DNA of 64,000 nucleotides from Ruditapes philippinarum (Eukaryota): the NCBI RefSeq assembly GCF_026571515.1, contig NW_026854357.1, positions 1-64,000 on the forward strand, in the 5' to 3' direction. Under the pieces are notes generated by a model, which was not told the origin of the DNA, made no database searches, and was given only the letters and a program-made list of their open reading frames with translations. A program made the position numbers and the translations under genes. Shown piece after piece: positions 1 to 39,090 of this stretch (within the stretch, counting starts at the first letter, position 1; each line of letters starts with the position of its first letter).

Positions 1-2250
1 AAGAAGCAGATCTTATTGATGCACAATCATCTGCCTGCTGTTGAGTATGCAGAGAAGAGAAATGTTGTAAGTTAATGTTATTGTCATTATTCTCGGACTG
101 ATAGAGAGCATTATGCCTAGTTAACCAATCAAATGCTGTCAAAACCTTGAATGGATCAATAAGAAAATTTCCAGAGGAAGCTAAAACATTTCCATGTTCA
201 AACCTTACCAAGCAAAGTGTGTCTTTTGTTTTCAAAGCTGACATAGTTGCATTAATTTCTACAGGGAAAACCAATGACCAAACCTTTTTCTGCATATTGC
301 CCACCTGGTAAGATAATCAAAGACATGCAAATTTGTATTTTAGCTAGTAATTTTTTTTCAAGATTACTGAGAGATGACAGTTCTGGTGGTATGTTTTCAA
401 TGTGGAGTGAATTCAACTTAGAACACAAAAGTGGCATAATGTTCTTAGACAAATAAGTACAACAAGTTTTGCAAAGGTCATGGGAATAATTCAGGTGAAG
501 AGACTTTATAATGTCATTATCAGAGTGCCTAGGAAGATGATATACTTGGAATGAATACAAAAAGCGATCACAAGAATGGCACCAGGCATTAGGTTTATCA
601 CGCAAGAATTTTTCATAACAAGAGCTGTCGGTAGGACAGCACGCTCAACTATTCGAAGTGCTTGATAGTAAAAGAGCCTTGATAATGTTAAATTTTTTAA
701 GTTCACAAAAGGGCTAATTTTTTTTTTATAAATTCATGTTATAGGCCTTAGAGAGAGTCTAATTATACAGTATTGGCTTGACTATTCGGAAGGTAATGTC
801 ACGAGTGTGTTTTATTGAGTATAATAATACTAATTACCTATGAATACATAAATTTGACAGAAAAGGTACAAAGGCTTGTTATTAAGATGTTTTATCAAGT
901 AAATAACTGCTTTATTATTATGAATGCATAAAATTGTCCCAAAAAAGGCACAAACCCTTCAGTAGTTATTGAGATAACAGCTTACAAGCAAAACTTTACC
1001 ATGAATTTCTAAGTTGAAAAAGGGGAGAAAAATCAGCTTAATTGCAAGATAGAATTATGAATCTTTGTCAGTGGCCTACAATTATGACCCTAAATGCATA
1101 TGTGAAGTTTTAAATAAATATCTTTAATAGTTATTGAGATATGTAAAACTTGCATGTAAACATTAACCAAGAGACTAAGTAGAAAAGGGGATATGAATCA
1201 GCCTTAATGCAAGATAGAGTTATGGAACTTGGTCAGTGACATACAATTATGACCCTCCAATTATGACCCTAAGTGCATGTGTAAAGTTTCAAGTAATTAT
1301 ATTTGAAGACCTTTAACCTTTAACCAAAATTTCTAAGTTTCAAAGGGGCAAGTAATTCTGCAAATATTGCAGGCAGAGTTATGCAATTTTGCAAACTGAT
1401 GTACATTGTTACTATAAAAAAGTATTTTAAATTTCAATTGAATATCTCAAGCAATAATTGAGATATTTGATTTTACAAAAAACTTTAACCAAAATTTCTA
1501 AGTTAAAAAGGGGAATAATTCTGTCAATATTGTAGGCAGAGTTATCCAACTTGTCAATCTGATGTAGCTTGTTACTATAAATAAGTATTGTAAGTTTCAA
1601 TTGAATATCTCAAGTAATAATTGAGATATTTGACTTTACAAAAAACTTTAACCAAAATTTCTAAGTTAAAAAGGGGCATAATTCTGTCAATATTGTAGGT
1701 AGAGTTATCCAACTTGTCAATCTGATGTAGCTTGTTACTATAAATAAGTATTGTAAGTTTCAATTGAATATATCAAGTAATAATTGAGATATTTGACTTT
1801 ACAAAAAACTTTAACCAAAATTTCTAAGTTAAAAAGGGGCATAATTCTGTCAATATTGTAGGCAGAGTTATCCAACTTGTCAATCTGATGTAGCTTGTTA
1901 CTATAAATAAGTATTGTAAGTTTCAATTGAATATCTCAAGTAATAATTGAGATATTTGACTTTACAAAAAACTTTAACCAACGCAGACGCGGACGCTGAC
2001 GCCGACGCCGGGGCGACTACAATAGCTCTCATATTCTTCGAATAGTCGAGCTAATTAACACTAGTAGAGTCTACTGCTGGACAGTTATTTGAGTGACTAG
2101 AACAATTAGAAATATTTGTATGCATGTTGTCACTCTGAGTAATTATTTCTTCATAAGCTGCAATATCAAAATTAGGCATATCCATGCAAGAGAATGTGAA
2201 ATTTTTGTCAATAGGACTTTCAGAAACATTCATTGCATTATAATCATTAT
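1..2250 (-). pseudogene. Helitron/Helentron ORF fragment (DUF6570-type region upstream of Rep/Hel), split by a HINE insertion and one frameshift; continues off the left edge
   Basis: Minus strand reads YEKFLRDKPNAWCHSCDRFLY...LCKTC...IPPELSSLSNLEKKLLAKI...LPGGQYAEKGLVIGFP. After a 1-nt shift near 267-270 it continues FPVEINATMS...DPFKVLTAFDWLTRHNALY. The CxxC pairs, P-x-EL-xx-L-xx-LE, GGQ-xx-KG and V-xx-A-xx-WL-xx-N-x-LY motifs are typical of DUF6570 in Helitron-like ORFs. Upstream ORF 2051-2233 joins in frame once 618-2053 is removed. Confidence 0.8.
618..2053 (-). mobile_element. Non-autonomous Helentron-type element (HINE / pearl-like) with internal ~163-bp tandem repeats
   Basis: Subterminal inverted repeat GCTCAACTATTCGAA (~642) / TTCGAATAGTCGAGC (~2037). 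GACGCC microsatellite at 1982-2010. About four 163-bp units at 1320-1980 (the ORF track shows near-identical peptides offset by 163). Inserted between two A residues (TT on the minus strand) with no TSD. Confidence 0.9.
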
Positions 2251-2566
2251 AATCTTTTGGTTATCTTTTGCTTTTTGCTTTTTTCTTTTGGTGTTTTTCC
2301 ATTTAATGCAGAGTAAGAATTGTTATTGTTTCACAAAGTTTAGGACAAAGTGAAACCATTTTTTTCTCTTAAATCTTTCAGAAAGGTAATTGACATATTA
2401 TTCAATTAATTACATAGATATCTGAAGGTACCTGGCTACAAGTATATGTTTGTATCATAGTTTGGGGACCTTTCTGATGAAAATGCGTCCGAGTTACGTC
2501 GTATACATATACATGCGCCATGAGTTAACTGGAATGCAGGTATTAGTTACCCGCACTCCAGAGAAT

Positions 2567-2832
2567 GCCCATTGATTGGCTCATTTTTGCTAGGGTTTAC
2601 TTTTTGTGACGACAGAGAAAGGAAAAGCGACAGAAATGTCATATTTCGATGCTCGTTCATTGGTTTCTTTTCTCCGGGGTTTCATATTGTGACAACAGGG
2701 AACGTGTTTTTTGTTTGACTGTGATACGAAAGAGAAAGAACATCAAAACATTCGGCAATCTGATTAATACATGGGGCTACGCCCCCTCGTATAAATCAGA
2801 TAGACTCGTGTCTCGATGCTCTTTCTATTACA
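2567..2832. repeat. Dispersed repeat with GGGGC-TAC-GCCCC hairpin (probable DNA-element terminus)
   Basis: Close copy at 62521-62705. Both copies end at the identical boundary GCTCTTTCTATTACAT. Confidence 0.75.
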
Positions 2833-3365
2833 TTGTCCTTTATGTTAGCTTATTTGTACTAATATACTAACATGGAGTAGACCTATTTATTATGAGGCAC
2901 ACGGTATTGATGGTTACTAGTCTGTAGACAGTAACTTTTCATTACAAGGAGACAAAAACTAGTAATTTTAAAGCGTTGTTTTTTTCTTTTCAAGTGAGAA
3001 GTAATTTATGGAACAAATACATCTTTTTTGTTCACTCTTTCTGTAAAACGGTTATATTTTGTAAATCTTTCACAGTGCAAGCCATTAATAAATATGTAGA
3101 ATTACTACAATATTGAAAACTGAAGATATAATGTATCAGATATGGAGCAAATTACTTTGAAAAGAAATGCACTAAGTTAGCAGTATTTGGAAAACTTGTG
3201 CAATAAATAAGCATAAATCAAAAGTTATGCCTTAAAATCCTCTAGACGAGACATTATCTTTTCATAAAAATGTTGTTGGTTTTTTATGCTAATAGTTGAT
3301 ATTCTGGAATTCTCTATGAAATTAAGTCCATATCGTCCGCAGTATATTAACCACAGACTGATTTA

Positions 3366-4960
3366 TTAGCTCACCTGTCACAAAGTGACAGGGTGAGCTT
3401 TTGTGATCGCTTTTCGTCCGGCGTCCGTCCGTCGTCCGTCCGTCCGTCCGTCCATAAACTTTTACTTTAAATGACATCTACTCATAAACCACTAAGCCAA
3501 TTTCATCCAAACTTCACAGGAATGTTCCTTTGGTGGTCACCTTTAAAAATTGTTCAAAGAATTTAATTCCATGCAGAACTCTGGTTGCCATGGCAACCGA
3601 AAGAAAAAACTTTAAATATCTTCTTGTAAAAAACCAAAAGAGATAGAGCTTAGATATTTGGCATGAAACATCTTCTAGTGAGTGTCTACCACGTTTGTTC
3701 AAATAAAAGCCCTGGGGTCAAAATTGGCCCCGCCCCGGGGGGTCATTGATTTTCCCTATATGCATATAGTAAAAACTTAAAAAATCTTCTTTTAAAGAAC
3801 CAAAAGAGCTAGAGCTTAGATATTTAGCATGAAACATGTTCTAATGGGTGGCTACCAAGTTTGTTCAAATAAAAGCCCTGGGGTCAAAATTGGCCCCGCC
3901 CCAGGGGTCATTGATTTTCCCTATATGCATATAGTAAAAACTTAAAAATCTTCTTTTAAAGAACTCAAAGAGCTATGGCTAAGATATTGAGCATCAAATA
4001 TGTTCTAATGGGTGTCTACCAAGTTTGTTCAAATAAAAGCCCTGGGGTCAAAATTGGCCCCGCCCCAGGGGGTCATTGATTTTCCCTATATGCATATAGT
4101 AAAAACTTAAAAAATCTTCTTTTAAAGAACCAAAAGAGTTAGAGCTAAGATATTTAGCATGAAACATGTTCTAATAAGTGTCTACCAAGTTTGTTCAAAT
4201 AAAAGCCCTGGGGTCAAAATTGGCCCGCCCCGGGGGGTTATTGATTTTCCCTATATGCATATAGTAAAAACTTACAAAATCTTCTTTTAAAGAACTCAAA
4301 GAGCTAGAGCTAAGATATTTAGCATGAAACATGTTCTAATGTGTGTCTACCATGTTTGTTCAAATAAAAGCCCTGGGTCAAAATTGGCACCGCCCCGGGG
4401 GTCATTGATTTTCCTTATATGTGTATAGCAAAAACTTAAAAAATCTTCTTTGAAAAAACCCAAAAAGCTAGAGTTAAGATATTAAGCATGAAACAACTTT
4501 TAGTGAGTGTCTACAAAGTTTGTTCAAATAAAAGACCTGGGGTCAAAATTGGCCCCGCCCCGGGGGTCATTGATTTTCTTTATATGTGTATAGCAAAAAC
4601 TTAAAATCTTCTTTGAAAAAACCCAAATAGCTAGAGTTTAGATATTAAGCATGAAACATCTTCTAGTAAGTGTCTACAAAGTTTGTTTAAATAAAAGCCC
4701 TGGGGTCAAAACTGGCCCGGCCCAAGGGGTGTCGTTGTTTTTTACTATATGTGTATAGTAAAAACTTTAAAAAAAATCTTCTTTTAAAAAGCCCAATGAG
4801 CTAGAGCTTAGATGTTTAGCATGAAACATCTTCTTATGGGTGTCTACCAAGTTTGTGCAAATAAAAGCCCTTGGGTTAAATTGGCCCTGCAACGTTGGGG
4901 GTGGGGGTTGGGGGGCCTATATACAGGTGAGCGACCTCAGGGCCATCATGGCCCTCTTGT
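3366..4960 (+). mobile_element. Non-autonomous Helentron-type element (HINE) with ~8 x 165-bp internal tandem repeat
   Basis: 5' TAGCTCACCTGTCACAAAGTGACAGGGTGAGC hairpin followed by a (CGTC)n microsatellite. Repeat anchor AAATAAAAGCCCTGGGGTC recurs at 3701, 3867, 4031, 4197, 4362, 4526, 4689 and 4859. 3' subTIR ACAGGTGAGC, palindrome AGGGCCATCATGGCCCT, terminal CTTGT. Confidence 0.93.
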
Positions 4961-5546
4961 ATAGTTTTGCCATAACATTTTCGGCTTAGATTTGTAAATT
5001 TCATTAAAATTAATTGTTGTGTATTATGTAAAATGGCATTTTTTATTGGAATGTCATTATTGTTTTCTAAAATTATCATTGTTTAAACCTTCATAATAAC
5101 TGCAAACTTGAAAAAAATGCATTACCATTAAAATTAATTAGCCCCATCTCTGTAATGTATAAGTAAATAAGTAAAAAGGTTATTGAATACATTTCACATA
5201 AGGAAGATTTTAAAATAAAGTGTCATATATCAAATATATGTCAGATCTCAAGAAAGTGATGCTACAGAGATTATCACAGCAAATTTGAATCAATCAATAC
5301 TTGAACTAGCTGAAAAATATGACAACAAGCGAAGTGAAGAAGAATTTGATTTTTGATTTAATTTAATTAAAAGTATAAATGACAGTCAAAATGAATCAGT
5401 TACTCTCCAATTGACTTGATCTTGAGGAAATTTTAAAACACATTCATGTTATAATCGAAAGTGAAAGTGAAATGGACGTCAATACTAATAAAAGTATTTT
5501 TGAGAAAAAAAAAAAGATCAAATACATTTATTTCTGCCGTACTATC

Positions 5547-6055
5547 ATGGCACTTCTTGGCTCAAGTCACTTTGAAAAATTTTAGGGAATGGACGGGGTC
5601 GAGGTCAGCTGCGGAAAGTCGAGGGAGACGCTTTTGGGGGCTGCAAATGCCAAAGAAGCTATTGTACGTCGACTTAGTAGAACGTCTCTACAAAACAAGA
5701 CGTTGATCATTCACCTCGGAGACAATGACGTCTGCAAGGAGATTGGTCGGCAAAGATTGAGAGACGGATATTAGAAGATTTGGACAAAACACGGGTCAAA
5801 CCGGGTGGCGGATAGTATGATTCGGACACTGGACGCCTTTATATCATACATTCGAAAAGAGATGGGGTCCATAAGAAAATCTGTGGTCGACCTATGGAAG
5901 AGAACAAAGTCCCGGCGCCCCGCCTCCTTTGAGGTCACCAGGCTGTAGTTCAACAGGAACTTGAACAAAGTGAAGAATAAGAAATTAGAATAAGAAAAAA
6001 GATCGACAGTCGTCACATACGCGAAGATGGAGTCAATCTAACAGAAAAGGGTTAG
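5547..6055 (+). pseudogene. SGNH/GDSL-type esterase domain, disrupted
   Basis: One frame with several stops gives MALLGSSHF (block I-like) and TLIIHLGDNDV (block III GxND). After a frameshift it gives HIREDGVNLTEKG (block V DGxH, with H replaced by N). Confidence 0.75.
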
Positions 6056-6153
6056 CGATGGTAAAGAAGAAACTGAAATCTGCTTTATCAAAATAACTCT
6101 TCACCAAAAAAAAAAAACAACCAACAGTCCTTTTCAGGACTACCACAACTGCT

Positions 6154-6349
6154 CGAAAGAGATACCTTTAATATTGTCATTCACTGAAGAATACCTTAAA
6201 TATTGTCATTCACCGAAAGAATACCTTAAATATTGTCATTCACCGAAAGAATACCTTAGATATTGTCATTCAACGAAAGAATACATTACATATTGTCATT
6301 CGACGAAAGAAAACCTTATTAAATTGTCACATATACCCTAAATATTGTC
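6154..6349 (+). repeat. 30-bp minisatellite, ~6 copies
   Basis: Unit CGAAAGAATACCTTAAATATTGTCATTCAC, visible directly. Confidence 0.9.
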
Positions 6350-6539
6350 TAAGTATACCATTTACCTTCCCTTTTTAATTTAAACGAAACATACATAAAT
6401 ATTGAGAAAATCTTCATACGCACATTTTAAGACTATTTGCATTCAAATTGAATGAAAAATAAATTATTTACAAGCGAAATACGGCGGAAAATTGTTTCAG
6501 CCGTGGCAGCAAATAAAGCAAGCGCTCGCTGAATGAAAA

Positions 6540-7553
6540 TCCCGCTGGGAAGAAGGGTAAATCGCTACGAGACAACAGCTCTGTTTAGCCCCTTCTTTTC
6601 GCCGTGAAAATGACTAAGCACAGTGGCGTAAGACGAGCAGCCGAAGTGTTGAAATTCCGCCAGGTATAAGGGGAAATCGCGGCGAGTCGAAGGGTCGGTC
6701 TAGCCCCCTTCTAACGATAAGGCTTTTTTTAATCACTAGTTTTACGAGTAATTTGTTGTTTAGTTGTTAAAATATATGTAAATTTATATTAATTATCAAT
6801 TATTTATAGGGGCAAATTTACATTTGCCAATTTTAACAATTCGAGTCAAGTCGAAAAGATGGCGGCGCATAGCTGACTTGAGCCTTTTTTGGGTATATTT
6901 CAAGGGTTGACCCGCTAAAATGTCTAAAATGGAAAATGAAATAAAAATAAAGTACCGTATAGAAAAATACATAACATATGTTTTCATTGTAATTTTTATT
7001 GTAATATTTTTTTCAAAATATAACTATCAGTAGTAAAGTACAGAATCATAACGAGGAAGTATAAAGTTACGTATATCTTATATGTGCTAATAAGGTGATT
7101 ACCGGGTAGGGGTACTTAATTTGTAAATAACACCGTGTTTTAATCCAGAATTAAATAAAAAACATTGTTAAAATAACTGTTAATATATAAATGTTAGAGG
7201 TAAATAGGGAAAATTTGACAATTTGAATAATTCGAGTAAAGTCGAAAAGATGGCGGCGCAGAGCTGAATTGAATATTTCAAGGGTTGACCCGCATAATCA
7301 CCTTATATTAAGAGTAGAAAAAAATCAAAGTACGAAAAGTGGACACTCTCCTACGTGGGAACAAACAACCGGACTCACGGCGAAAAGAAGGGGACGTAGA
7401 CCTCTCGGCGAATTCCACCTTCTACCAGGCGGGATGTTAGCGTTTCAAGCGCCCGCCCGTCCCTCCACCGTACTTTGCCATTCTAATTACCTCACAGAAA
7501 GTAAAAACAATCTAAGTACGAAAATGGACATTCCTACGTTGGTACAAACAACC
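6540..7553. promoter_or_regulatory. Repeat-structured putative control region upstream of the YR gene
   Basis: Perfect 19-bp inverted repeat CCCCTTCTTTTCGCCGTGA (6589-6607) / TCACGGCGAAAAGAAGGGG (7375-7393). Duplicated block with YY1-consensus AAGATGGCGGC (6856, 7247) and TATTTCAAGGGTTGACCCGC. Further direct repeats at 6540/6655 and 7320/7503. Regulatory function is inferred. Confidence 0.5.
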
Positions 7554-7899
7554 AATACAATTGAAAGATAGAAAGATAGACAAGAAAGAAAAAGTCAGAA
7601 AGGGGATAGTATAGCAGGATGGACCGAAATTCGCTTCTTGCGTGTAATATTGTTTAATATATCAGTATATATCACTGATATTATTTAATTGCTATCATAT
7701 AGCAGATGATATATAATTTTTAACAATTTCATTTGATTTTAGTGTTAATTATTTTTGTATAAATTACTGCTTGCATTTAAATTGATAATATAAGTGATAA
7801 ATTTAATTAAGTCTTTATTTTTTCGGTAAATAATAGTGATTTGTTACTTTAAACTGTAAATATTTTTTATACTTTGCTGTCTTTATTGTACTCGTCATA

Positions 7900-9890
7900 G
7901 CTACTAACGTAACAGTTGCTCGCGAGTGTTATATTTGTAGGGAAGAGAAACAGAGGACGGGAGACTCGGCACTGCAGACGGAGTTCAAGAACTATTACAT
8001 GTGAAAAGAGTGCGATTTCCGGCGCGATTATGTGGGGAGTAGCAAGAAGCCTAGAAACCAGAATGAAGACGGTGGGTATGTTTATCGTTTTCTAGCTTCT
8101 TTATCTTTTAGGGATGGAGAATTTTCAAGGATAATCCCGGCCGCTGTTCGAGTTCATGACTCCGTCTTGAGGTCGTACCTGGATAATGGCACTATTATCC
8201 GGGTACTGACTAAGATATCGGACTTCCTGAGATGGTGTAAGTCGCAACAGTTCATTCACAGATGATAATACGACGGAATTATGGAGATCGTCAATGGATG
8301 CCAGCAGTCGGCCAGAAAGGCTGATCAACAGACGACAGTGGAGAGGCTGGTGGAGGAAGCCCAGAACCTGCCAGCACCGACGGTACCTGCTGCGTTTGAA
8401 AAATCAGAGTATGTCAGAGCACTAAGGGTAAGGTTTCGGCGGAACCCCATTCATTTTTTGTATGATATGGGGTGCTGCCTTATGGTTTTATTAACCATGA
8501 CCAATGCATGCAGGGTTTCTGTTTTAGGTAATCTACGCCTCATCGATGTGGACCGGGCACAGATGCACGACAAGGATGGAAAGACCAGGTACACCATGTC
8601 CGTGTCGAGGCACAATACTTCCTCTACAGGTAAAGTTGCTTTTTTGGTTTAAGATGAATTTTTATTCGCAGATTTATCAATATACAGACGGACGGTTTCT
8701 ACTCTAGTGAGTCAGGTCGACTTAAGATCAAAGCTGGTCAGGGATAGACGATTCATGCCGATTGCAACAGAGTCTGTGGGAAGGATGTGCCGAATCGCCT
8801 GGGAAGCGGCAAAAATGACAGGTAACTTTTCTACTACTCTTTTCAGGAAAACCACCACAATATACAGTATGCAAGCTGACCCAAACTCAGCAGAGGTCGT
8901 CAGCAAGAAGCCTTGCCTCCGGAAGAGCACTGCTGACACGTGGTATGCTGTGCACCAGGACAGAATTTCCGCCCTAGAAGCCGATGATAAAAAGCAACCA
9001 AGGATGGCAACAGATGCCGACACAATACCTGACAAGAAAGGCACGCTCGGCTACTGTGAACCAAGCTCCAGAGGAGGTAAATGTTACAGGACCAGCACCC
9101 ACACCAGCACCAAGACCAGCTCCAACAAAAGGACCAGCACCAACACCACGACCAGAACCAGCTCCAGGACCAACACCAGGACCAGCTCCAACACCAGGAC
9201 CAGCTCCTGCACCAACACTAGAACCAACACCAGGACCAGCTTCAACACCCGGACCAGCTCCTGCACCAACACTAGCACCAGCACCAACACCAGGACCAAA
9301 ACCAGTTCCAGCACCAACACCAGCACCAACACCAGGACCAACTCCAGCACCAGGACCAGCTCCACAGTCAGCATCAGTTACAGGACCAGGGCAGGTAAAT
9401 TTGATTTCTTTTTCAGATACCTTTCTGAGAACAGTCATGGCTGCAAGAAGGTTCGAATGAGGCTCGAACAATTGGGACCTGAGTGGAGGGGCTGCAGAAG
9501 CCTACATATGACACACCGGGATTGATGGTTGGCCTCTTCAATGTAGAAGACGATATATCAAGCCAGAGGACGTTCGAGTATCAGGACCACAGGTAGTCAA
9601 GTAACAGTTCTTTTATTACTGCCGCCGGCAGCGGAATTGTTCCGCCGTCGGTTACCGGCAGTGATGCTTCTTTTACACTTAGTCTTATTTCAGCCAAAAA
9701 GAGAAAGGACCGCGTTCCAGTGCCACCCAGTGTCAAGAAGCAGATCAAGGACACCTTCCTAGAGGTGATATTTCATTATGTGGAGGAGCCTAGCAAAGTC
9801 GTGACAATGCATATTGTGAGGGAGATGAGAAAGGATAAGTGGCCGGAGTACAACGATAAACAACTCGTAGACATTTCTCAAATATGGTAA
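7900..9890 (+). pseudogene. Tyrosine recombinase (phage-integrase fold) gene of an animal YR DNA element, spliced, disrupted
   Basis: ORFs 8032, 8281 and 8707 share one frame separated by stops: RECYIC...TIIRVLTKISDFLRW...LMVLLTMTNACRVSVLGNL...MSVSRHNTS...FSTTLFRKTTT...KKPCLRKSTADTWY. This gives the catalytic R, an HKT-like motif, RK, a degenerate H and the Y nucleophile. A Pro-rich linker follows, then GT-AG intron 9593-9693 and last exon 9694-9890 (KKRKDRVPVPPSVKKQIKDTF...IVREMRKDKWPEYNDKQLVD, Myb/SANT-like). Confidence 0.8.
9087..9390 (+). repeat. Coding minisatellite, ~18-bp unit CCAGCACCAACACCAGGA (PAPTPG repeats)
   Basis: Visible directly. It generates the four overlapping low-complexity ORFs in the track. 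Confidence 0.9.
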
Positions 9891-10306
9891 AAAATGAAGA
9901 AGACTTTTAGGTAAACATTTTATCATTTTAATTTTAAAAAAGTAACACTATAAATAATAAATAATGCAAATTTAAAAAATAATTTTCCAAAATAAATTTA
10001 AAAGAGCAAGACATAAATGATGCCTCATCAACCAAAGAACAAAGGTATATTTTTCCATTTACTTAAGGTCAAAGTTAAGTATTAGACGAATGCAGACAGA
10101 TGGGCAGGCTATCAAGCCGAAGGAAAGGTAAAGGTCCACAAGGGGTAGGATAATTGAGGAGGTGAAAGGAGATATAATACTGAAGCGCAGACATATCGTG
10201 TTGGATTGAGTGGAACGAAATTAAATCGTGACGATGATAATATCAGATATTACCATGGTCTAGTGATGTTTCATTTTTACTTACAGTGAATTACATTGAC
10301 ATTGTA

Positions 10307-11105
10307 AACAAGATATGTTTGTAAAACATGCATGCCCCCTATTGGCAGCAAATTAGTCGTGTGATCAAGTTAGTACAACTGACTTGACCTCATGACCAAA
10401 AAATCAATAAGGGTTAATCACTGGTCATGACAAGTCACTAGGTAATTTTGACGGCAAGAGTTGTGTGCAGCAATTTTATGACAAAGTTATTACAAATCTT
10501 ACCAAAAACTAATTGAATAAATGTTTTGAATTTTGAAGGCCTCATTAATGACAGCCAAGTTGTTATATTACATAAGACCTTGAAATGTGTATACCAAAAT
10601 GAATTTAAGTTTAATAAAAAATATCAACCAAGGCAACTTGAGTTATTGAGATATTTGTCAGAAACAGTCTTTACATACAAGGTCAATATTACATTAACCT
10701 TTGACCCTTAAATAAATAGGGATTATCTACTGACCAAGACCAATGCAGCTGTGAAGTTTGAAGGTAAAGGGCCCATGAGTTGGGATATTGATCAGAAAGC
10801 ACCGTTTTAAAATACAAGGTCAATGCAAAGTTTGAAGTTCCTAGGCCTATGTGTTCTTAAGTTATTGATCGGAAACTGTTTTTTCCTACAAGGTCAATGT
10901 GACCTTGACCTTTGAGTCATTGACTTTAAAATCAATAGTGATCATCTTCTGGTCATGACTAATCCTTATACTAAGTTTAAAGTTCCTGGGCCTAAGCGTT
11001 TTTTAGTTATCACTCGGAAACCATTTGGTCTACGCATCGACGGTCTGACCGACAGACAAATGCAAAGCGATAAACCCCCACTTCTTTGCAAGAGGGGGGG
11101 GCATT
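10307..11105 (-). mobile_element. Degenerate non-autonomous Helentron-type element (HINE)
   Basis: AACAAGATATGTTTGTAAAACATGCATGCCCCCT at the left end. GACCGACAGAC microsatellite and CCCCCACTTCTTTGCAAGAGGGGGGGCAT hairpin/subTIR at the right end. Internal TGACCTTGACCTTTG repeat units. Confidence 0.8.
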
Positions 11106-11114
11106 ATTACCTCT

Positions 11115-12098
11115 TTGGACACCTAGTTCTTACACCAAAGAAGTTTTTAAAAGCCTTTACAAGCTTAGAAGCATATAACTAGTTTGTCAACGGCCGGGTG
11201 GGGGAAAGGCACGTGAACAGTCTCTTTTCAAACTCTGGAATACATTCCGCGCTTCTCGGGAAACAACTTCACAGGTGAAGGTCGTGTGTACAAGTGACCT
11301 AAATGACTCTTCTGTCTCACTTATCAAAATAATCTGCTATCCTTGTATTAAACCTTTAACAAACAGGCAACAAAGTGAGGAAATGATAATGGAAAAAACG
11401 CTTTAAAGGCTTCCAATTAAGAAAGACAAAAACGTGTGTTAAAAAAATTCAGACTTCATCATTGCTACAAAAGTCTTATTCATTGGAGGATCGCCAGATG
11501 GTGTAGTTTTAAGCGACTGCTGCGGAACAACAACTGTAGTGTTGAAGTGTCCTTTCAATATTGAATGAGGATTTTGACAAATGTGACTACTTAGTAATTG
11601 ATGACATCGTTGATAAACGTTCGAAAACAAACCATCAATATTATTTACAAATACAAACTCAATTGGGCTGTTGGAATCTTGAATTTGGCTTTTTTATTGT
11701 CTGGACATAGAAACGATATTCATGTTGAACAGACCGTGTTTAACTAGGTTGTTTTTTGTTGTTGTTGTTTTTTTTTTTGTTTTTTTGGTGGGGGGCGTTA
11801 TGGGGCAAAACTTTCTCCAATGCAGCATCCTTCTGGAAATTGTAGGAAAATATAACCCTTAAAGTCAGACACTGTAACCAGCAGCATCAGGTAGCACACC
11901 ATAACAAACGGTTCTTTCAGTGGTGTGTTTAAACATCAGTCGTAATAATCAGTCCAATGAATCCGAAGAACTATACTGATTTAGTCAGAAATAAGAGTGC
12001 CTGTGACAATCAGAGCCGCAACAATGAGTGGTTTCATTATTAGTGTGTTGGAATTAGCTACAAGCCTCGTGGAAACGCGTATTGCAAGAAATGCAGGA
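11115..12098 (+). pseudogene. YqaJ-like (lambda-exonuclease family) + ING-type PHD finger relic, as in ISL2EU-type accessory genes
   Basis: Fragments in the expected order: AREQSLFKLWNTFRASRETTS...SVSLIKIICYP; FIGGSPDGVVLSDCCG...LKCPF; HQYYLQIQTQL...FFIVWT; ACDNQSRNNEWFHY*CVGISYKPRGNAYCKKCR. Confidence 0.85.
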
Positions 12099-12310
12099 GT
12101 TAATTGTAGGGATGTCATCCGGAGTCCAGATATCCGAACGTACGAATCGCGATTCGATGTCCGAAATTAATTTTTCAGATCCGGATATTCGTATGAAGTA
12201 TTTCTGTTGTTTTTTCCAGAACAATGAACTAAAACATGTCATAATTATGTGTCATATACTTGCGTTGAGATAACCGACCTCGTCATTGTGATTGCATCTC
12301 TTTAGCGCGT

Positions 12311-12516
12311 ACCTAAGATATGACAATACACAACGTATACATACATAATCGTATATATGCAAACCATAAAAAATCAATAATAACGTGAAGAAAATATATA
12401 ATGCTGGTGCACTACCTAAGATATGACAATACACAACGTAAACATACATATACGTATATATGCAAACCATAAAAAATCAATAATAACGTGAAGAAAATAT
12501 ATAATGCTGGTGCACT
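12311..12516 (+). repeat. 103-bp tandem duplication inside the hAT element
   Basis: ACCTAAGATATGACAATACAC...GCTGGTGCACT at 12311 and 12414. Confidence 0.9.
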
Positions 12517-13999
12517 GTCCTTGAAATATACTTAAGGACAATGAAAACGCACGCCAGCACTATATGCATTTTATTACATGAAAACAAAACACTAACGACG
12601 CTATAAGATATATATCATAACTCTAATACAAAACGCAAACTTAACGACTGAAAAAAATTCAAAATGTTAAAATCAGGAAATCCCCAAATCACACTTTTTC
12701 ATCACAGTAATGCAAACAAAGGCAAAAACCAAAGTGAAAATCCAAAACAAAGTCACTCATAAATGTCTATTCGTAATGTCACCGTCGGGATCTTTAGAAA
12801 CGACAACGCCCTCCATCAGCGTCTGTTACAGAATGATGTACATCGTCGCCTCATAGACATTACGGTGGAAATAGTCGCCTGTGGAATCTGACGCCTTTTG
12901 GCCTGTAGTGTAGTTCGAAAACAATGGCGAAGCCGAGAAATTGTAGACCGATGGACAACAAAACGGTTGGCGCTTTGTTTTTAAGATAGACCAGACTGAA
13001 ACTGTGCTAAATCTACCCAGCAGTTATTTCTTTATAGAACCATTGCATACAATTTGCTAGCAAGTATTCAGTAGTGTTTGAAATTTAGCACCTTTTATAG
13101 AGGAAAAGTGTGTATATGCAATTTCCAAATGAGCTTTTACGATTTCTAAAACTGACCATTGGCATAGTTTAATATTCATTTTTATAAAGGTTTTAATTGC
13201 TCATTTGTGTCTAACATTTCTAGAAAGGTGTGGAAAACAAGTAAATAATTTACATTTTAAAATAAAAGATAATTTAATTTCACGAAGAAACCATGAATTG
13301 GTTCAATCTGTTTTCTTTTAACTTCAATAAAATGCAACCATTTTTCATAACTTTGGTATCTAAATTGACCGGAATGCATTCTGATTTATGAAACTGTAAA
13401 ACATATTTAAAAGAAATATATTTTCTTTATTAGACTGATATTATCCCGACCGTGCGTTTTAATTGTCATTAAGTATACAATAATTGTTTCAATTATTATT
13501 ACCGATTGCGGCAAACAATTGCTTACTCAATATCTTCTTTTGTCCCGACAGTGAAACAAATGTCACACCTCTTGGATATTTATATTGATATTGAATTCGG
13601 TAATTGGTGCACGTACAAATGTTTTATACTCTTCTGTGAAGTTTTTGATTATTAATCTGTGTCGGTTTAATTATTCGGCCATAATTTTTAAAACAACTTT
13701 AAATTAAGTCTTTCTTATTGGCTTTCATAAAGCAACTCCTTTTCAATTAAATATTACTAATTATGTAAGAATAAAAATCTATTCGTTACTTTTAATTTTA
13801 AGTTTACGAGTGGTATTTATCTGGTGAACAGTGTCTTGTTCTTAAGGATTTTACTGATACCACTACTTCTATGTCTACAGAATCACACGTCTCTTGTTCT
13901 GAGATATACCCAATTGTGTTCGGTTTACGGAATGGATGTTTAAAAAGACAAAGTGCTGATCATAGTGTTAAAATAAAAGTTAAGTGCTATCCGCTCTGA

Positions 14000-14480
14000 A
14001 ATCAATACGCGTTCTCAGTGTGCCGAATCTTACCCATGTAAGCATCCCAATTTGACCCTTAATACAAACGTTTACCTTTCCTTACAGATGAACATCGAAC
14101 AACGCAAGGCTACGCACGAGATGTTAGATGAAAGTATCGACGAAATCCCATTACGTATCCCCGCACGTGTATACATTCAAACTCCCAAACGTCGTAAACT
14201 TAACTTCTGCAAATTTGAAAATGACCCGAAGAATGTGTCAAAATCGCAAATTATCTCGCTGACAAACCTTCTCAGGACTGTGAACCTTTAGATTGGTGGA
14301 AAAAAACGAAAACAAGCATCCAAACATCGCAAATACTGCAAGCCGCGTGCTTGCAGTTCCAGCTACTTCCGTTCCGTCAAAACGTATTTCCGGTGCCACT
14401 TGTATGTTGTTAAACAATTTAAGAAACAGATTCTCAAGCGACATTGTCGATAGTATCAGATTTATGGGGTTTTATTGTCG
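14000..14480 (+). pseudogene. hAT transposase C-terminal dimerisation-domain remnant
   Basis: DCEPLDWWKK / NENKHPNIANTASRVLAVPATSVPSKRIS...LRNRFSSDIVDSIRFM matches the PL-x-WW...PATSVPSER pattern. Confidence 0.88.
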
Positions 14481-15224
14481 TAAATTAAACTTGTCAATAA
14501 AATATTAACATTGTGATATTATGAGAAGGCGAAATACTTCAAGTTTCCTAGATTGGCGTGATTGCCAATTGCGAATATTCTTTTGTAATAAGATAATTTT
14601 CAGATACTTATAAAAACAGTTTTTTAAGAAAATACTTATATGATAATTGAGTTATTATATCTGACCAGCAAAGAAAGCTTTATTTTCAATTCAATATGAA
14701 TATTTTCTGTAGTCCTGGAAGAGTTGTCGTTCTTTGATAAAGAATATGTCGGGGAACTATCTTACTTATAAAATAATTATTATGTCCACATTTTTATATT
14801 AATTATACACTTTGAAACAATAATATTCATAAAAGGAGACGAAGGGTAAGGGCCAATAACAATATTGAATAATTGATAATAAGAAACAATCGATTTAAAA
14901 GAAATGAATAACGGCGCACTCTCACGTTAAAATGGTCGCGAAAATTGGTTACGTCAGATCAACGGACTCAGGCTGAAATAACGATTCGAACATCCGGATG
15001 TATTCGGAGTTCTGATTTGAGTATCCGGATCGTGAATTAGGCTCCGGATGACATTTCTAGTTAATTGACATCAATTTGTTAAGACTTTTTAATAATGATA
15101 TGAATATTATTGACGTCACATTGAGAAAGAAAAAAATATAAATAATATGAGTTACTGTTCAAATTTATCACCTTGTAAACTATGAACTTATTTCTCTTTA
15201 TTAAAAAGTATACAGTATCTTTAT

Positions 15225-16110
15225 AACAAGAACTGTCGGAGGCAAGTAACGCTCGACTATTCGAAAAGTTGTCACAAGTGTGTTTCATTGAGTATAATAA
15301 TGCTTACCTATATGAATACATAAAATTGTCACAAAAAGTACAAAGGCTTGTTATTCAGATGTTTTATCGAGTGAATCACTGCTTTATTATTATGAATGCA
15401 TAAAATTGTTCTAAAAAAAGCACAAACCCTTCAGTAGTTATGGAGAAACCAGCTTACAAGCAAAAACTTTACCAAGAATTTCTAAGCCGAAAAAGGTGCA
15501 TAATTATGAAAAAAAATCAGAATTATGGGACGTGTGCCAATCATGTTAAATAATCACAGAGAACAAGTGTGTGAAGTTTCAATTTATTCCCTTCAGTAGT
15601 TATGGAGAAACCAGCTTGCACGCAAAAACTTAACCAAAAATTTCTAAGTTGAAAAGGGGCATAATTATGCATAAAGCAAATCAGAGTTATGGGACTTGTG
15701 CCAATCATGTTATATAATTACAGAGAACAAGTGTGTGAAGTTTCAATCCATTCCCTTCAGTAGTTATGGAGATACCAGCTTGCACGCAAAAACTTAACCA
15801 AGAATTTCTAAGTCGAAAAAGGGGCATACTTATGCCAAAAAGGAAATCAGAGTTATGGGACTTGTGCCAATCATGTTAGTTAATCATAAAAAACAAGTGT
15901 GTGAAGTTTCAATCCATTCCCTTCAGTAGTAATAGAGATACCAGCTTGCACCAAGAATTTATAAGTTGAAAAAGGGCATAATTATGCAAAAAAGCAAATC
16001 AGAGTTATAGGACTTGTGCCAATCATGTTAGATAATCACAGAGAAAAAGTGTGTGAAGTTTCAATCCATTCCCTTCAGTAGTTATTGAGATACCAGCTTG
16101 CACGCAAAAG
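15225..16110 (-). mobile_element. Truncated HINE of the same end-family as 618-2053, with ~165-bp repeats
   Basis: AACAAGAACTGTCGG...GCTCGACTATTCGAA end. 15250-15500 aligns with 775-1025. CCCTTCAGTAGTTA anchor recurs at ~15427, 15589, 15753, 15919 and 16071. The second end is missing. Confidence 0.85.
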
Positions 16111-16207
16111 GTGTACCTGTAAAATAACAGAAGATCACTAACATAATATGATATGATAAACTACACTATCATTATCATTTGTCCACACAACACACACTAC
16201 ACAACTT

Positions 16208-17990
16208 TTATGCTCTCAATTTTATGAGCATATTGCTTACTTTCTTTTTTATATTGTCAATTGGTCTCTTAAACATTTCCCCATTTTCTTTGCAGCTTTT
16301 CTTTATTCCAATTTTTAGCTCATTTGTGTTTGGACACTTCAATGTCTGAAAATTTCTGTAAAACAATCTTTTCAATTCGCTCTCCTCTCCTTCTGTCCAT
16401 TTCTGCCTCTGTGTCTTCTTTCTATCTGTAAAAGGTACATTAAATTTAAAAGAGGCATAAGAATATACATAACTATATACCTTTGACTGTTAAATAATTT
16501 AAATGAACTAATTTACAGTAAAACTCTTTTAAGTCTCTGGTGGATGTTATAAGTCAGAAAAGTCAGACTGGAATCACATTTTAGTTTGGTACTCAACAAT
16601 TCTGCCAAGTTTAATCTTATGTGATCTATCTGGACAACTATATCATAAATGTTCAATATTTCACCCAACTTTGCATCTTCATATATTAACAGCTATATAT
16701 TCACCAGCCAGAAGGAAAAAATAAAACATAAAACAGCTGTCATATAGATATGTCGTGACAGAAGTAGCCAATGAGAAGCCTTTTATAATGTATCAAAGAA
16801 CTACTCATAAAGTGTCAGCCCAAACTAATTTTTGGTATTATATCATAATTTTAGTGGTACTTTTATGTGCCGTGTTTGACTTTTATTTTACCTTTTTCGG
16901 TGAAATATTGAAAACATCAGTGTGATATAACTCTACTATTTCATTTCTACTGTTGTTTTCTTTATGTTCTTGACATTCTAACTCATCCAGAACTGTCTAG
17001 TTAAAATATTTTCAGGCTAGTACATCAATAACATTTTGATTAAATTTCAAAACTACATGCAAATCGCAACATTGTGAAGTTATATGCAGTGACATGAAAC
17101 TGCAAACTTTTTGTTTGTAGCAATACCTGTGGTTGGCATATATGCGATGTTTTGTGTGTCCAGTACCATTGAAAATTATTGCAAAGAAATGATAAAGATT
17201 AAACAGATGTAATAACAGTAAAGCTGTATGCACTTATTTACCAAATTCTACTGTATATTACTCAACACACTTTCTATACAGTGATCTTTGACCTAATGAC
17301 TTGTAATGCTATATAGTCCAGTTATCTTTATGACTGCTAAAGCACAATACAATTTATGTTATAGATAACAGACGATGACTGTATATAATAAAAGCTGATA
17401 TATTAGCAAGATAATATAATTGATATAATTGGTCCTTTTCTCTTACTTTGTCCTGTCTTTGTTTTCTTTATCATGCTGTCGTTGCCATCGTCTTCTAAAA
17501 GCATAGCCATTGCCTCAAAGAAATCAATTGGACAATAATGAATAGGCTCATGCTTATTCGGAAGAAACAGCATTAAATTTAAAAATCAACATGGCTTTCA
17601 ACAAAATGGCAGTCTTAAAATCCCATACCTTCATCTGCCTCAGCCAATCTCAATATACTTATACTAGCTAGAAAAATATGTGCATTAATCTTTATTTGAA
17701 ATCATGAAAAATTAAAAAAAAATGTTTAAACAGTAAGAGGTGAGCACCAAAGAAGCATAACACAATTTCAGAGAATGTAATAAATTAAACCTGTTTTTAT
17801 CATACAAATTTCATGGATATTGCTTGAAAACATAAAGAAGGTTAATATGCCACAGTCAAAGTTTAAGTCAAGCATAATGAAACCATGATTTTGTTTACCT
17901 GTCAAGCTATTACGGATTAATTTAAATCTGATAACTTACTTCTTTTACTACTTTTCTCTTCGCCATCCTGACAATCTTCATCTTCAAGTT
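16208..17990 (-). CDS. Four 3'-terminal exons of a YR-element-type gene (acidic/basic linker + Myb/SANT-like tail); 5' part decayed
   Basis: Exons 17990-17940, 17667-17629, 17494-17447 and 16425-16208 all have canonical splice sites and are phase 1. They splice to LEDEDCQDGEEKSSKRTSISILRLAEADEEDDGNDSMIKKTKTGQNRKKTQRQKWTEGEESELKRLFYRNFQTLKCP...KRPIDNIKKKVSNMLIKLRA*. Confidence 0.65.
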
Positions 17991-19469
17991 CTACAAAAAC
18001 ACCAGCCTAAAGGTATCTTTCAAGAAGGAAAGTTGATATTGTTTTAAATATTTATATGGCTATCTAATTTTTTTGCATTTAAAATGTGCAGATAATATTT
18101 ACATATGCAAGGCAAAGAAGAAAATACATTCCTAGGCCAAATGGCATGCTTACTCAATGCTAGTGGAAAATAAGACATGTCAATTACAATTTCACATACT
18201 TGCTTTTTTAAGGGAGTGGATATATTTGTGATGTATCTTAATTTAAAAGTATTAAAAAAAAAAATTATTCTAAAATTTGCAAGCACAAAACTTGGTTAAA
18301 GTCAAACTCTGCTGGATATTGATGTGCGCTGGTAAATCTGTCAACCTACTTTTGTTGTTCAAAATCAGTGTTCATTCACCACAAACAACTGTATTTTTAC
18401 CTATACTTACAAAAGTAGTTTTGCATTATAGATGTCTATTCACCTTTTACTCACTTTAGCTTTAAATTAATTAATAATCCTCAAATTTCCTAATAATCAC
18501 ATTTATTGTTAATAAAGTCTGCAACTTTGTATGTTACTTTCACTATACATCAAGTGCGTGCTAAAGTATTGCAGTGACATCAGCTCTGATTGATTTTATT
18601 TAAAGGGCTTTTCAGTGGGACTGTTAGAAATAAAGTTTCATTTTATTTTATACGTATTTGGTGCATGATCTGCTACCACTCCTTAAAATGTTAATTGTGT
18701 ACATCATAATAATTGTTGAGTATCAATGAATACAATAATTTTGTTCTATATATTACAATTAATGTTTTTATTTATTTACTGTTAGAGGTGTTGGAACTGT
18801 TGAAAATTGTTTGAATTGTTGACGAACATTGTTTAAGATTGAACCACTTGTATAAAAGGTGGGGTTTCTCGCATGAGTCACTCCGAAGCAGAAAAAGGCA
18901 TTATCTAACCATTCATTTCTTCGTTTAATCTTAAATAAAGAAATTATCTTGTAAAATTATTTATACAAACATTTTTGGGGACATAACACATCTACAGCAA
19001 TCCTTGCATTGTTACATTCAAGCGTTGAACTTCAATAAAAAGTGATTTTTTCTGAAGATCTTTAATTTTGTTAGTCAGGCACCGACACCTCGTATTTGAT
19101 TCGCCAATTATTTTATACTTTGATTTCTTTCTATTATTCTTGACATTAAAGGTTAACTGATTTGGATAATTTATGTAAATGCTGTTTAATATGAAGAAAT
19201 AAACTTATTAACGGTTATTCATAGTCTATATTCCCACTTAGATTTTATTTAAGCTTTGTGTGGTTTTAATAATTGTTCACTTCTCTTGCTGCATGGTCAA
19301 TCTAAATTTACAGTTGTTCATTTGTCTACTCGGGACAGAAATAAATGTGAAATTTGAAGTAGAGCCTATTACAATTTCCTGTTACGATTGTCCTGACACA
19401 TAACAATATGGCAAATAGTCTGGTATCTCTGATAAACAATTGCATCAATTAGCTTATTTGTAACATATA

Positions 19470-19666
19470 AATGGTGGGTAAATCATACAACCATCCATTT
19501 GAACCTTGAAATTAGCAGACTGCAGCTTAGCCAATTCCATAGCTGATTGCTGAATTGTATGCACAATTTCACAGACATATATGACTGAACATACAATGTA
19601 TATAATAATGTCATACTTAAGTTCTGTTTCTATCTTCAGATCAAGGTTAGAAAACTTATGAATCAA
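19470..19666 (-). pseudogene. Garbled catalytic C-terminal exon of a second YR family
   Basis: NLDLKIETELKY...IVHTIQQSAMELAKL...MDG resembles the L-x-L-xxx-EL...GH-xxx-VH-xxx-YR...ELAKV...G tail recalled for animal YR proteins. The GH and Y residues are not intact. Confidence 0.45.
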
Positions 19667-19756
19667 TTTGGACAGGATAAGAGTGTTACAAAGAGAGGAA
19701 AAACATACACTGGTGTTAAAAGGTAATAAGTTTTACATACAAAAAATTATTTTTCC

Positions 19757-20175
19757 TTTTTTATGCATCCGGGCATGTAGTTATTGAACCGTCTGTCCAT
19801 CCATATGCACTTAACCTAAAACGACAAGTTGGATTTTTCTTTAGTTCTCCCTGTACTTATGGCTTCATCAATTACTCACTACTACTATGGCTTCATAATT
19901 TACACACTACTTCTTAATACAAAGTACATGATCTTGTAAAACTCGGGCGTCCAATGTTTTCCAAGTTCTCAGACTTTGCAAATGGATACGGTGAACCTAA
20001 AGCGGTAAGTTGGATATATCTTAAGTTCTATCTATACTCATAATAACCACACTTACTTATCAATATAAGGTACGTGATATTGCCAAGTTATATGACAGTT
20101 ACTGTGCCATCCATTTTACAGTCACAGTCTAACTTGCCCATGTTACCACTTGTATTAGGCATCTTTTTGCTAACA
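19757..20175 (+). mobile_element. Old HINE-like relic
   Basis: TTTTTATGC...GGGCAT start, CCGTCTGTCCATCC microsatellite, and an internally repeated AACCTAAA..AAGTTGGAT block (19813, 19994). Confidence 0.4.
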
Positions 20176-37476: not shown

Positions 37477-39090
37477 TGGAAATAAATATAAACCATTAGT
37501 CTATGAAGGCTGGACATGGAGGGGGACACCGACACTGAACGCCGAACAATCCCTTGAGGATGAAAATATAAAAACATTGATTGCATGTACGGGGAGACTT
37601 TTTACAGCCGCCACACGGCACAAACAACACGGTTGTGAACATAAAATATGATAAACAAGATCAACAAGGAAAGGCGGCGTTCAGTGAACGCAACCCCCAT
37701 ATGATCCAGCAACAAGAACCAGTGGCAAGAAGCCCAAAGAAAATTTGGGTATGAAAATATAATAAAGTGGAAATAAATATAAACCATTAGTCTATGAAGG
37801 CTGGACATGGAGGGGGACACCGACACTGAACGCCGAACAATCCCTTGAGGATGAAAATATAACAACATTGATTGCATGTATGGGGAGACTTTTTACAGCC
37901 GCCACACGGCACAAACAACACGGTTGTGAGCATAAAATATGATAAACAAGATCAACAAGGAAAGGCGGCGTTCAGTGAACGCAACCCCCATATGATCCAG
38001 CAACAAGAAACCAGTGGCAAGAAGCCCAAAGAAAATTTTGGGTATGAAAATATAATAAAGTGGAAATAAATATAAACCATTAGTCTATGAAGGCTGGACA
38101 TGGAGGGGGACACCGACACTGAACGCCGAACATTCCCTTGAGGATGAAAATATAACAACATTGATTGCATGTACGGGGATACTTTTTACAGCCGCCACAC
38201 GGCACAAACAACACGGTTGTGAGCATAAAATATGATAAACAAGATCAACAAGGAAAGGCGGCGTTCAGTGAACGCAACCCCCATATGATCCAGCAACAAG
38301 AACCAGTGGCAAGAAGCCCAAAGAAAATTTGGGTATGAAAATATAATAAAGTGGAAATAAATATAAACCATTAGTCTATGAAGGCTGGACATGGAGGGGG
38401 AAACCGACACTGAATGCCGAACAATCCCTTGAGGATGAAAATATAACAACATTGATTGCATGTACGGGGAGACTTTTTAAAGCCGCCACACGGCACAAAC
38501 AACACGGTTGTGAGCACAAAATATGATAAACAAGATCAACAAGGAAAGGCGGCGTTCAGTGAACGCAACCCTCATATGATCCAGCAACAAGAACCAGTGG
38601 CAAAAAGCCCAAAGAAAATTTGGGTATGAAAATATAATAAAGTGGAAATAAATATAAACCATTAGTCTATGAAGGCTGGATATGGAGGGGGACACCGACA
38701 CTGAACGCCGAACATTCCCTTGAGGATGAAAATATAACAACATTGATTGCATGTACGGGGATACTTTTTACAGCCGCCACACGGCACAAACAACACGGTT
38801 GTGAGCATAAAATATGATAAACAAGATCAACAAGGAAAGGCGGCGTTCAGTGAACGCAACCCCCATATGATCCAGCAACAAGAACCAGTGGCAAGAAGCC
38901 CAAAGAAAATTTAGGTATGAAAATAATAATTAAGTGGAAATAAATATAAACCATTAGTCTATGAAGGCTTGACATGGAGGGGGACACCGACACTGAACAC
39001 CGAACAATCCCTTGAGGATGAAAATATAACAACATTGATTGCATGTACGGGGAGACTTTTTACAGCCGCCACACGGCACAAACAATACGG
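37477..39090 (+). repeat. Young 291-293-bp tandem repeat, ~5.5 near-identical copies
   Basis: TGGAAATAAATATAAACCATTAGTCTATGAAGGC recurs about every 292 bp from 37477 to 38935. The ORF track shows repeated near-identical peptides. Confidence 0.97.

Follow-up and report, generated by a model that had tools for sequence, protein, structure and literature searches.

We analysed a window of 64,000 bp (positions 1-64,000 of contig NW_026854357.1, named C2844, in the 1.41-Gb Ruditapes philippinarum assembly GCF_026571515.1), in which the relic of an SGNH/GDSL esterase gene lies upstream of the remains of a tyrosine recombinase (YR) gene. Read from its sequence, the whole locus is likely a deletion-scarred mosaic around a dead, intronless YR gene (Table 1). 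The comparison covers stretches of 10-50 kb read at each SGNH or YR locus and a module map built over 60 fetched stretches of genome. Labels made of C and a number denote contigs of the same contig-level assembly, and P and a number a relative from the protein homologue searches. A first-pass annotation had described two co-oriented, GC-richer coding relics separated by a repeat-structured spacer. Both relics are real: the SGNH part is 64% identical to the intact 199-amino-acid (aa) protein P0003, and the YR part 56% identical to P0007 over 323 aa. Their co-orientation also holds, and so do the spacer repeats, a 30-bp array. The YR is clearly GC-richer (GC content 0.47-0.51 over 8001-10000, against about 0.30-0.38 around it), the SGNH part only slightly so.

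Table 1. Features of the locus, in window coordinates (ORF, open reading frame)
Feature	Position	Strand	Remarks
5′ fragment of the PHD-finger gene of an unrelated P-type DDE transposon	4961..5552	+	Joined directly to the SGNH start; outside the YR element
Intronless SGNH/GDSL esterase pseudogene carrying stops and frameshifts	5547..6096	+	Relatives, Pfam, Atlas, dN/dS
Putative histone-type 3′ stem-loop, then purine-rich element	6121..6167	+	25 bases past the SGNH stop; Rfam Histone3
5.5 copies of a 30-bp unit	6154..6318	+	Starts at the purine-rich element; repeat search
Truncated internal piece of separate repeat family S	6387..7623	+	Elsewhere continues from its ATG into a ZZ gene or other sequence
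Remainder of the YR left arm	7629..7896	+	Subterminal array seen in C1960 and C8715 deleted here
Single-ORF YR pseudogene	7897..9890	+	Zinc finger, SAM-like domain, HKT-type catalytic domain, Pro-rich linker, helical C-terminal domain
Start of the YR right arm, truncated	9891..10146	+	In C1960 runs on into a second array and a 3′ block

By the predicted fold and the motifs of its intact relatives, the window gene belongs to the tyrosine recombinase superfamily. The window YR itself has no Pfam match, and its read-through translation, used as a query for longer homologous proteins, found none. A natural ORF of the C5903 copy, which is 80% identical to the window YR, gave 15 matches among 1.84 billion representatives, one of them false; P0019, an S-layer protein, was rejected as a false match and dropped from the alignments. 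P0012 (720 aa), P0009 and P0027 are intact single-ORF relatives, in which a zinc finger (P0012 and P0027) and a SAM-like domain precede the catalytic domain, a low-complexity linker and a helical tail. The named YR relatives, P0027 (ACF0H5_019041) among them, come from Mactra antiquata. The catalytic motifs are N-x-x-R, HKT, TxxRK, H and Y; across eight intact relatives the first R is present in six, KT in all and the tyrosine in seven, with TxxRK in place of HxxR. The AlphaFold model of P0012 (mean pLDDT 64) matched XerA, Cre and lambda integrase in Foldseek (E 3e-5 to 1e-4). The nearest Atlas clusters hold unnamed mollusc and chordate proteins, with one SET-domain fusion cluster, and an echinoderm HKT-YR aligns at 96% probability.

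The window copy has several stops, substituted catalytic positions and, after about 8980 where the catalytic domain ends, frameshifts. Substitution patterns against the C5903 copy nevertheless show past purifying selection on this gene (dN/dS 0.33 over core and tail, 0.97 and 2.16 in control frames). An in-frame TAA at 8650-8652 is common to the window and the C5903 copies, at a position where the relatives have a residue, although the two copies diverged under purifying selection. Six loci carry this YR, the window included, the others being C5903, C2519, C1960 (two) and C8715. The C1960/C8715 subfamily lacks the catalytic region, and a 671-aa repetitive ORF lies upstream of the YR 3′ piece at C1960:1274-3286.

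The gene had been proposed to be spliced, with a Myb-like last exon, and neither proposal survives comparison. Relatives align in a single frame across 8014-8979 and again from 9603, and from linker (9088-9364 in the window) to tail the C5903 copy has one open frame. The candidate introns, three AT-rich GT..AG islands and a stretch near 9593-9694, were rejected, being coding in relatives and showing synonymous bias. No splice joint is listed among 102 reads of one RNA run on 4961-9080, of which 53 are under 90% alike, at low depth and with the tail not covered. About 560 bases that C5903 and a contig of another individual carry are deleted from the window copy at about 8000; the deletion cuts the zinc finger at about 7991/8010. 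The last part of the YR matches no Myb family, and the supposed exon is, by prediction, a helical C-terminal domain encoded in one ORF with the rest of the protein.

As had been noted at first pass, no reverse transcriptase (RT) accompanies the gene: RT and RNase H families are missing from 12 stop-read-through frames of 6060-7903 and 9900-12202, and from the ORFs of the other YR loci tied to the element. A repeat search of positions 1-20000 found no split direct repeats (A1 ... B1 A2 B2) around the locus. A YR as the sole transposition enzyme, without RT, characterises Cryptons, and the element agrees with them in this. The first-pass proposal of a YR DNA element without RT, neither an Ngaro nor a plain YR-only gene, is supported; the splicing, the control region and the fixed unit that went with it are not.

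The YR arms were followed through the genome. A tandem array (array A, 112 matches genome-wide) precedes the YR in C1960 and C8715, and a second one (array B) follows it in C1960, C5903 and C2519; the order in C1960 is array A, YR, array B and 3′ block. In 11 contigs (C4435, C6012, C8554, C4266, C14196, C6926, C14609, C2072, C14916, C11166 and C8148) array A is followed directly by array B without the YR gene. As the A-B order is kept in them, these copies, only about 2-5 kb long, would be internal-deletion derivatives. Their ends are inverted over 24 of 27 bases. Termini were found in these gene-less derivatives; none was found in the YR-bearing C1960 copies, and the window copy lacks both.

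Most of these ends lie against telomere repeats. Telomere arrays adjoin five of the six complete right ends (TTAGGG in C4435, C6012 and C12714, CCCTAA in C8554 and C10432, none in C4266), and of the three complete left ends two follow two or more CCCTAA units and the third a single unit. Telomere repeats are hence found at 7 of 9 complete ends, three further ends having been excluded (one without the end motif, two truncated), a pattern that matches the insertion of CryptonV into simple repeats. As a background, two units occurred in 6 of 20,000 random 60-bp windows. In a sister family that shares A and B units, TTAGGG precedes all 26 complete ends (30 loci fetched of 33 matches). This family is young, with copies up to 100% alike (for example C14196:150620 and 32 other matches). 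A distant HKT-YR at C14609:195113-197319 is flanked on both sides by (TATG)n tracts, a setting described for CryptonV; further distant HKT-type YR families are present in C5028, C2348 and C7361. About 11 kb from a sister-family end, C3688:9525-10823 (minus strand) holds a major-capsid-like ORF (Capsid_N, E 3e-4) that is likely from a Polinton, with no link shown.

Taking together the gene anatomy, the past purifying selection, the arm order in C1960, C5903 and C2519, the derivatives, their ~27-bp inverted ends and the telomere contact, we think it probable that the window holds a decayed, RT-less, telomere-repeat-targeting Crypton-like YR DNA element within a mosaic. On the basis of YR biochemistry, and in view of the fixed register, the YR would recognise the inverted ends and join them, presumably through a circular intermediate like that of other YR elements. 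Insertion would then take place at one fixed register of the TTAGGG hexamer, in either orientation; a duplication of 0 or of 6 bp would be indistinguishable because it falls inside the repeat. The zinc finger and SAM-like part may help to choose the target, and the element would excise and insert into (TTAGGG)n without reverse transcriptase. The window copy would have lost both ends, and deletions at about 5544, 6350, 7625 and 8000 would have joined the P-element, SGNH, family-S and YR pieces.

Several observations weigh against this interpretation. The genome yielded no intact YR of the subfamily, and a YR gene and an end touching telomere repeats never occur in the same copy. Beyond the 3′ block the C1960 copies that carry the YR diverge from the derivatives, and no end was found in them; the derivatives are only 70-78% identical to the YR copies. 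The sister family is tied to the element by shared repeat units only, and occurs in a single orientation. The end sets are not blind samples, since the searches behind them started from ends first noticed next to telomere repeats. Finally, the inverted ends may be those of a DDE element with captured YR flanks.

Among known systems, CryptonV, whose YRs are of the HKT type, is close in lifestyle, being an RT-less animal YR DNA element that inserts into simple repeats. It is set apart, by description only, by the telomeric hexamer that would serve as the target here, the ~27-bp inverted ends and the long subterminal arrays. CryptonV of Repbase (Kapitonov and Jurka 2012, as cited in PMC8869645 and PMC5753468) is described as inserting into microsatellites, and Cryptons in general as lacking terminal inverted repeats and having short direct repeats of 4-6 bp at their ends (PMC13465315). 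The derivative ends, inverted at 24 of 27 bases, depart from this rule, their tie to the YR gene being indirect. DUF3504, the CryptonA domain, was not found in the 10 proteins scanned or in P0027. Nor was DUF3435, the domain of the captain of Starships, in the same proteins. Starships resemble the element as YR-mobilised DNA with possible cargo; they are fungal, whereas the host here is an animal. They are described as cargo-carrying YR elements, some of which have inverted ends (PMC13465315). Telomere-specific YRs of nimaviruses (Majanivirus and Pemonivirus) have C2H2 and SAM-like domains and target (TAACC)n in crustacean hosts (PMC10871703). They share with our element the order C2H2, SAM-like domain and YR and the probable insertion into a host telomere repeat; they differ, again by description, in belonging to large crustacean viruses and in using (TAACC)n instead of (TTAGGG)n, and short gene-less derivatives occur here.

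The SGNH relic is a real gene that, judged from its sequence, was once under purifying selection (dN/dS 0.16 for its 5′ half against the C12074 copy). Its relative P0003 has the blocks I, II, III and V of SGNH/GDSL esterases (GSS, G, GDND and DGVH), gives Pfam GDSL matches (E about 1e-4) that stay under the curated cut-off, and has GDSL clusters as Atlas neighbours at 0.94. SGNH-related DNA is found at four loci in the assembly, three of them outside the window. At C7645:2000-3305, an SGNH 3′ fragment directly adjoins an 18S rRNA end, a single low-quality case. A Helitron-captured SGNH gene is cited in PMC7599744, which shows that SGNH genes travel with several types of element.

Rfam Histone3 matches the 50 bases that follow the SGNH stop, with a score of 25 bits (E 0.006) that falls short of the gathering score, 34. 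Across SGNH and KptA genes, 6 of 10 loci scanned gave such matches (20.8-30.3 bits, all under 34). The KptA/Tpt1 genes form an intronless cluster (Pfam E 2e-29; C9183:166278-228411, C2512, C6001 and C14086), and the stem-loop motif lies 3′ of KptA genes on four contigs, with 0 of 300 shuffles giving a hit in C9183. Flanks of 1.5 kb were read at the KptA loci, apart from C9183:128-178 kb. The 30-bp unit that follows the window stem-loop is single-copy in C12074 and C9183. As in replication-dependent histone mRNAs, the putative stem-loop comes soon after the stop, precedes a purine-rich element and belongs to intronless genes; unlike in them, the scores stay at 21-30 bits, under the cut-off. The SGNH and KptA genes may undergo histone-type 3′ processing. 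Rather than cargo of the YR element, they may equally be host genes, or genes of another element, with histone-like ends.

The neighbourhood of the YR is composite. The PHD-gene fragment is 84% identical to C10939, where it corresponds to a 551-aa ORF (PHD at E 6e-5). Its family has 87 matches in the genome, and in all eight loci fetched transposase-like ORFs lie beside the PHD gene, head-to-head. The transposase-like ORFs of the two loci scanned both match the TNP-like RNaseH_N family, and PIF1 is present in one scanned; SGNH and YR sequences were absent from the eight loci. The PHD gene was therefore rejected as cargo, being a member of the P-type family. This family has a divergent PHD gene, a PIF1 helicase in several copies and several intact ORFs (C2708, C9393, C1184, C15198, C1339, C823, C1026 and C14148). 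The PHD-SGNH and deletion junctions are not assembly errors: three other DNA runs yielded contigs that map to the locus, and some of these contigs cross the junctions with few differences. P0004, which covers the PHD-SGNH junction, looks like an allele of the window locus and not an independent copy, because it has the same junction and frameshift, spanned in other individuals' contigs.

The spacer had been taken for a 1.8-kb control region; it is a truncated piece of repeat family S (58 matches, 40 of 55 candidates scored). Of the 9 mapped contigs, 8 have it leading into a ZZ-finger gene, identified by Pfam match, or into a shared block; complete copies end in a terminus specific to family S, with differing flanks and no telomere repeats. 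The window holds many other unrelated relics. Repeats with internal arrays of 163-165 bp or 291 bp occupy 1318-1981, 3363-4960 (inserted in the PHD element), 15427-16109 and 37477-39090. On the minus strand, 252-644 contains a fragment of DUF6570 (E 2e-5), a Helitron-associated domain, and 16208-16489 a short ORF, with no YR upstream, that resembles the helical C-terminal domain of other mobile-element proteins. The stretch 11480-11720 (plus strand) has no Pfam match at E 0.01 and is presumably, from its motifs, a YqaJ-like exonuclease remnant.

Given this composition, we asked how far the SGNH gene and the YR belong together. The SGNH is possibly cargo of the YR element, and SGNH, spacer and YR could even be the internally deleted remains of one large cargo-carrying YR element, a tentative idea that is compatible with the Crypton-like reading and that we hold to be less likely than that reading. 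All pieces are on one strand, and SGNH and YR are both rare in 1.41 Gb (four and six loci), so that chance adjacency is unlikely. In C15735 a piece of the spacer is interleaved with pieces of the YR left arm; in C9183 one of the KptA genes that share the putative stem-loop is followed 11 kb downstream, on its own strand, by a distant HKT-YR (24% to P0012); and the Atlas neighbours of the YR include the SET-domain fusion cluster. The fixed SGNH-spacer-YR unit that had been proposed nevertheless did not appear at any of the eight other loci: within the 10-50 kb read at each, none of the three other SGNH-related loci has this YR and none of the five other YR loci an SGNH. A 135-bp piece that follows SGNH in C12074, found also 6 kb upstream of the C5903 YR, was not counted as a link between the two. 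Family S has its own ends and differing flanks, and the unrelated P-element gene is joined equally tightly, which makes adjacency at this locus weak evidence. Two scans of metagenome contigs gave no relatives, in themselves no evidence either way. Rather unlikely, in our estimate, is a chance pile-up in which the telomere ends stem from a different transposon, of DDE type and with captured YR flanks, while the YR element itself has no telomere preference. Inverted ends are typical of DDE elements, no YR-bearing copy has an end, and unrelated relics abound in the window. On the other hand, the derivatives retain both arms and the 3′ block in the same order as the element, as internal-deletion derivatives usually do, and no transposase ORF was seen in them. 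Related YRs are moreover known, from the papers cited above, to target simple repeats.

A virus-like origin, also suggested at first pass, found little to sustain it. Fragments of an endogenous large DNA virus integrating in telomere repeats by its YR, like majaniviruses, would account for the C2H2, SAM-like and YR order and for the telomere target, both of which match the nimaviral YRs as far as their description goes, and intronless small enzyme genes and tandem arrays would look virus-like. We consider this improbable: four queries found no relatives in viral contigs, the viral fold matches of the P0012 model are generic integrases only (9-15% identity), and no nimaviral telomere YR is among the 50 viral fold matches listed. 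Among the ORFs listed, no polymerase, capsid or packaging gene is tied to any module, with only fragments of a contig-level assembly read and no core-gene search run, and the derivatives are small. Still further from the evidence, and very improbable, is an Ngaro retroelement that lost RT and RNase H. YR and SGNH do occur together in Ngaro elements, as they do in this neighbourhood. Ngaro elements differ in having RT/RNase H and split direct repeats (PMC13465315) and other YR motifs, whereas there is no RT in or beside the locus and there are no split direct repeats around it; this YR carries a zinc finger and the motifs HKT and TxxRK and is flanked by arrays of its own, and the SGNH is a separate gene upstream, with its own start, stop and 3′ signal.

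The Crypton-like reading can be taken one step further, to a conjecture that we regard as doubtful. Bivalves would carry an undescribed class of large telomere-homing YR elements, equivalent in animals to the Starships of fungi, with intronless cargo genes (SGNH, KptA and ZZ) that would use the histone stem-loop/U7 3′ route for S-phase expression; the window would hold a collapsed copy. The full-text literature searched contains no description of the YR element found here; Repbase Reports, Dfam and bioRxiv supplements lie outside it, and a catalogued family may exist there.

To our knowledge, target-specific YR DNA transposons of animals have barely been described outside Repbase. A family that targets (TTAGGG)n, with defined ends and with intact enzymes in other samples, would provide a testable integrase for the telomeric hexamer that molluscs and vertebrates share. 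Such a family may explain some of the interstitial telomere arrays and satellites of bivalve genomes, and the element would link Crypton-like elements with the telomere-homing integrases of nimaviruses. Histone-type 3′ ends on non-histone enzyme genes, if real, would be unusual in their own right.

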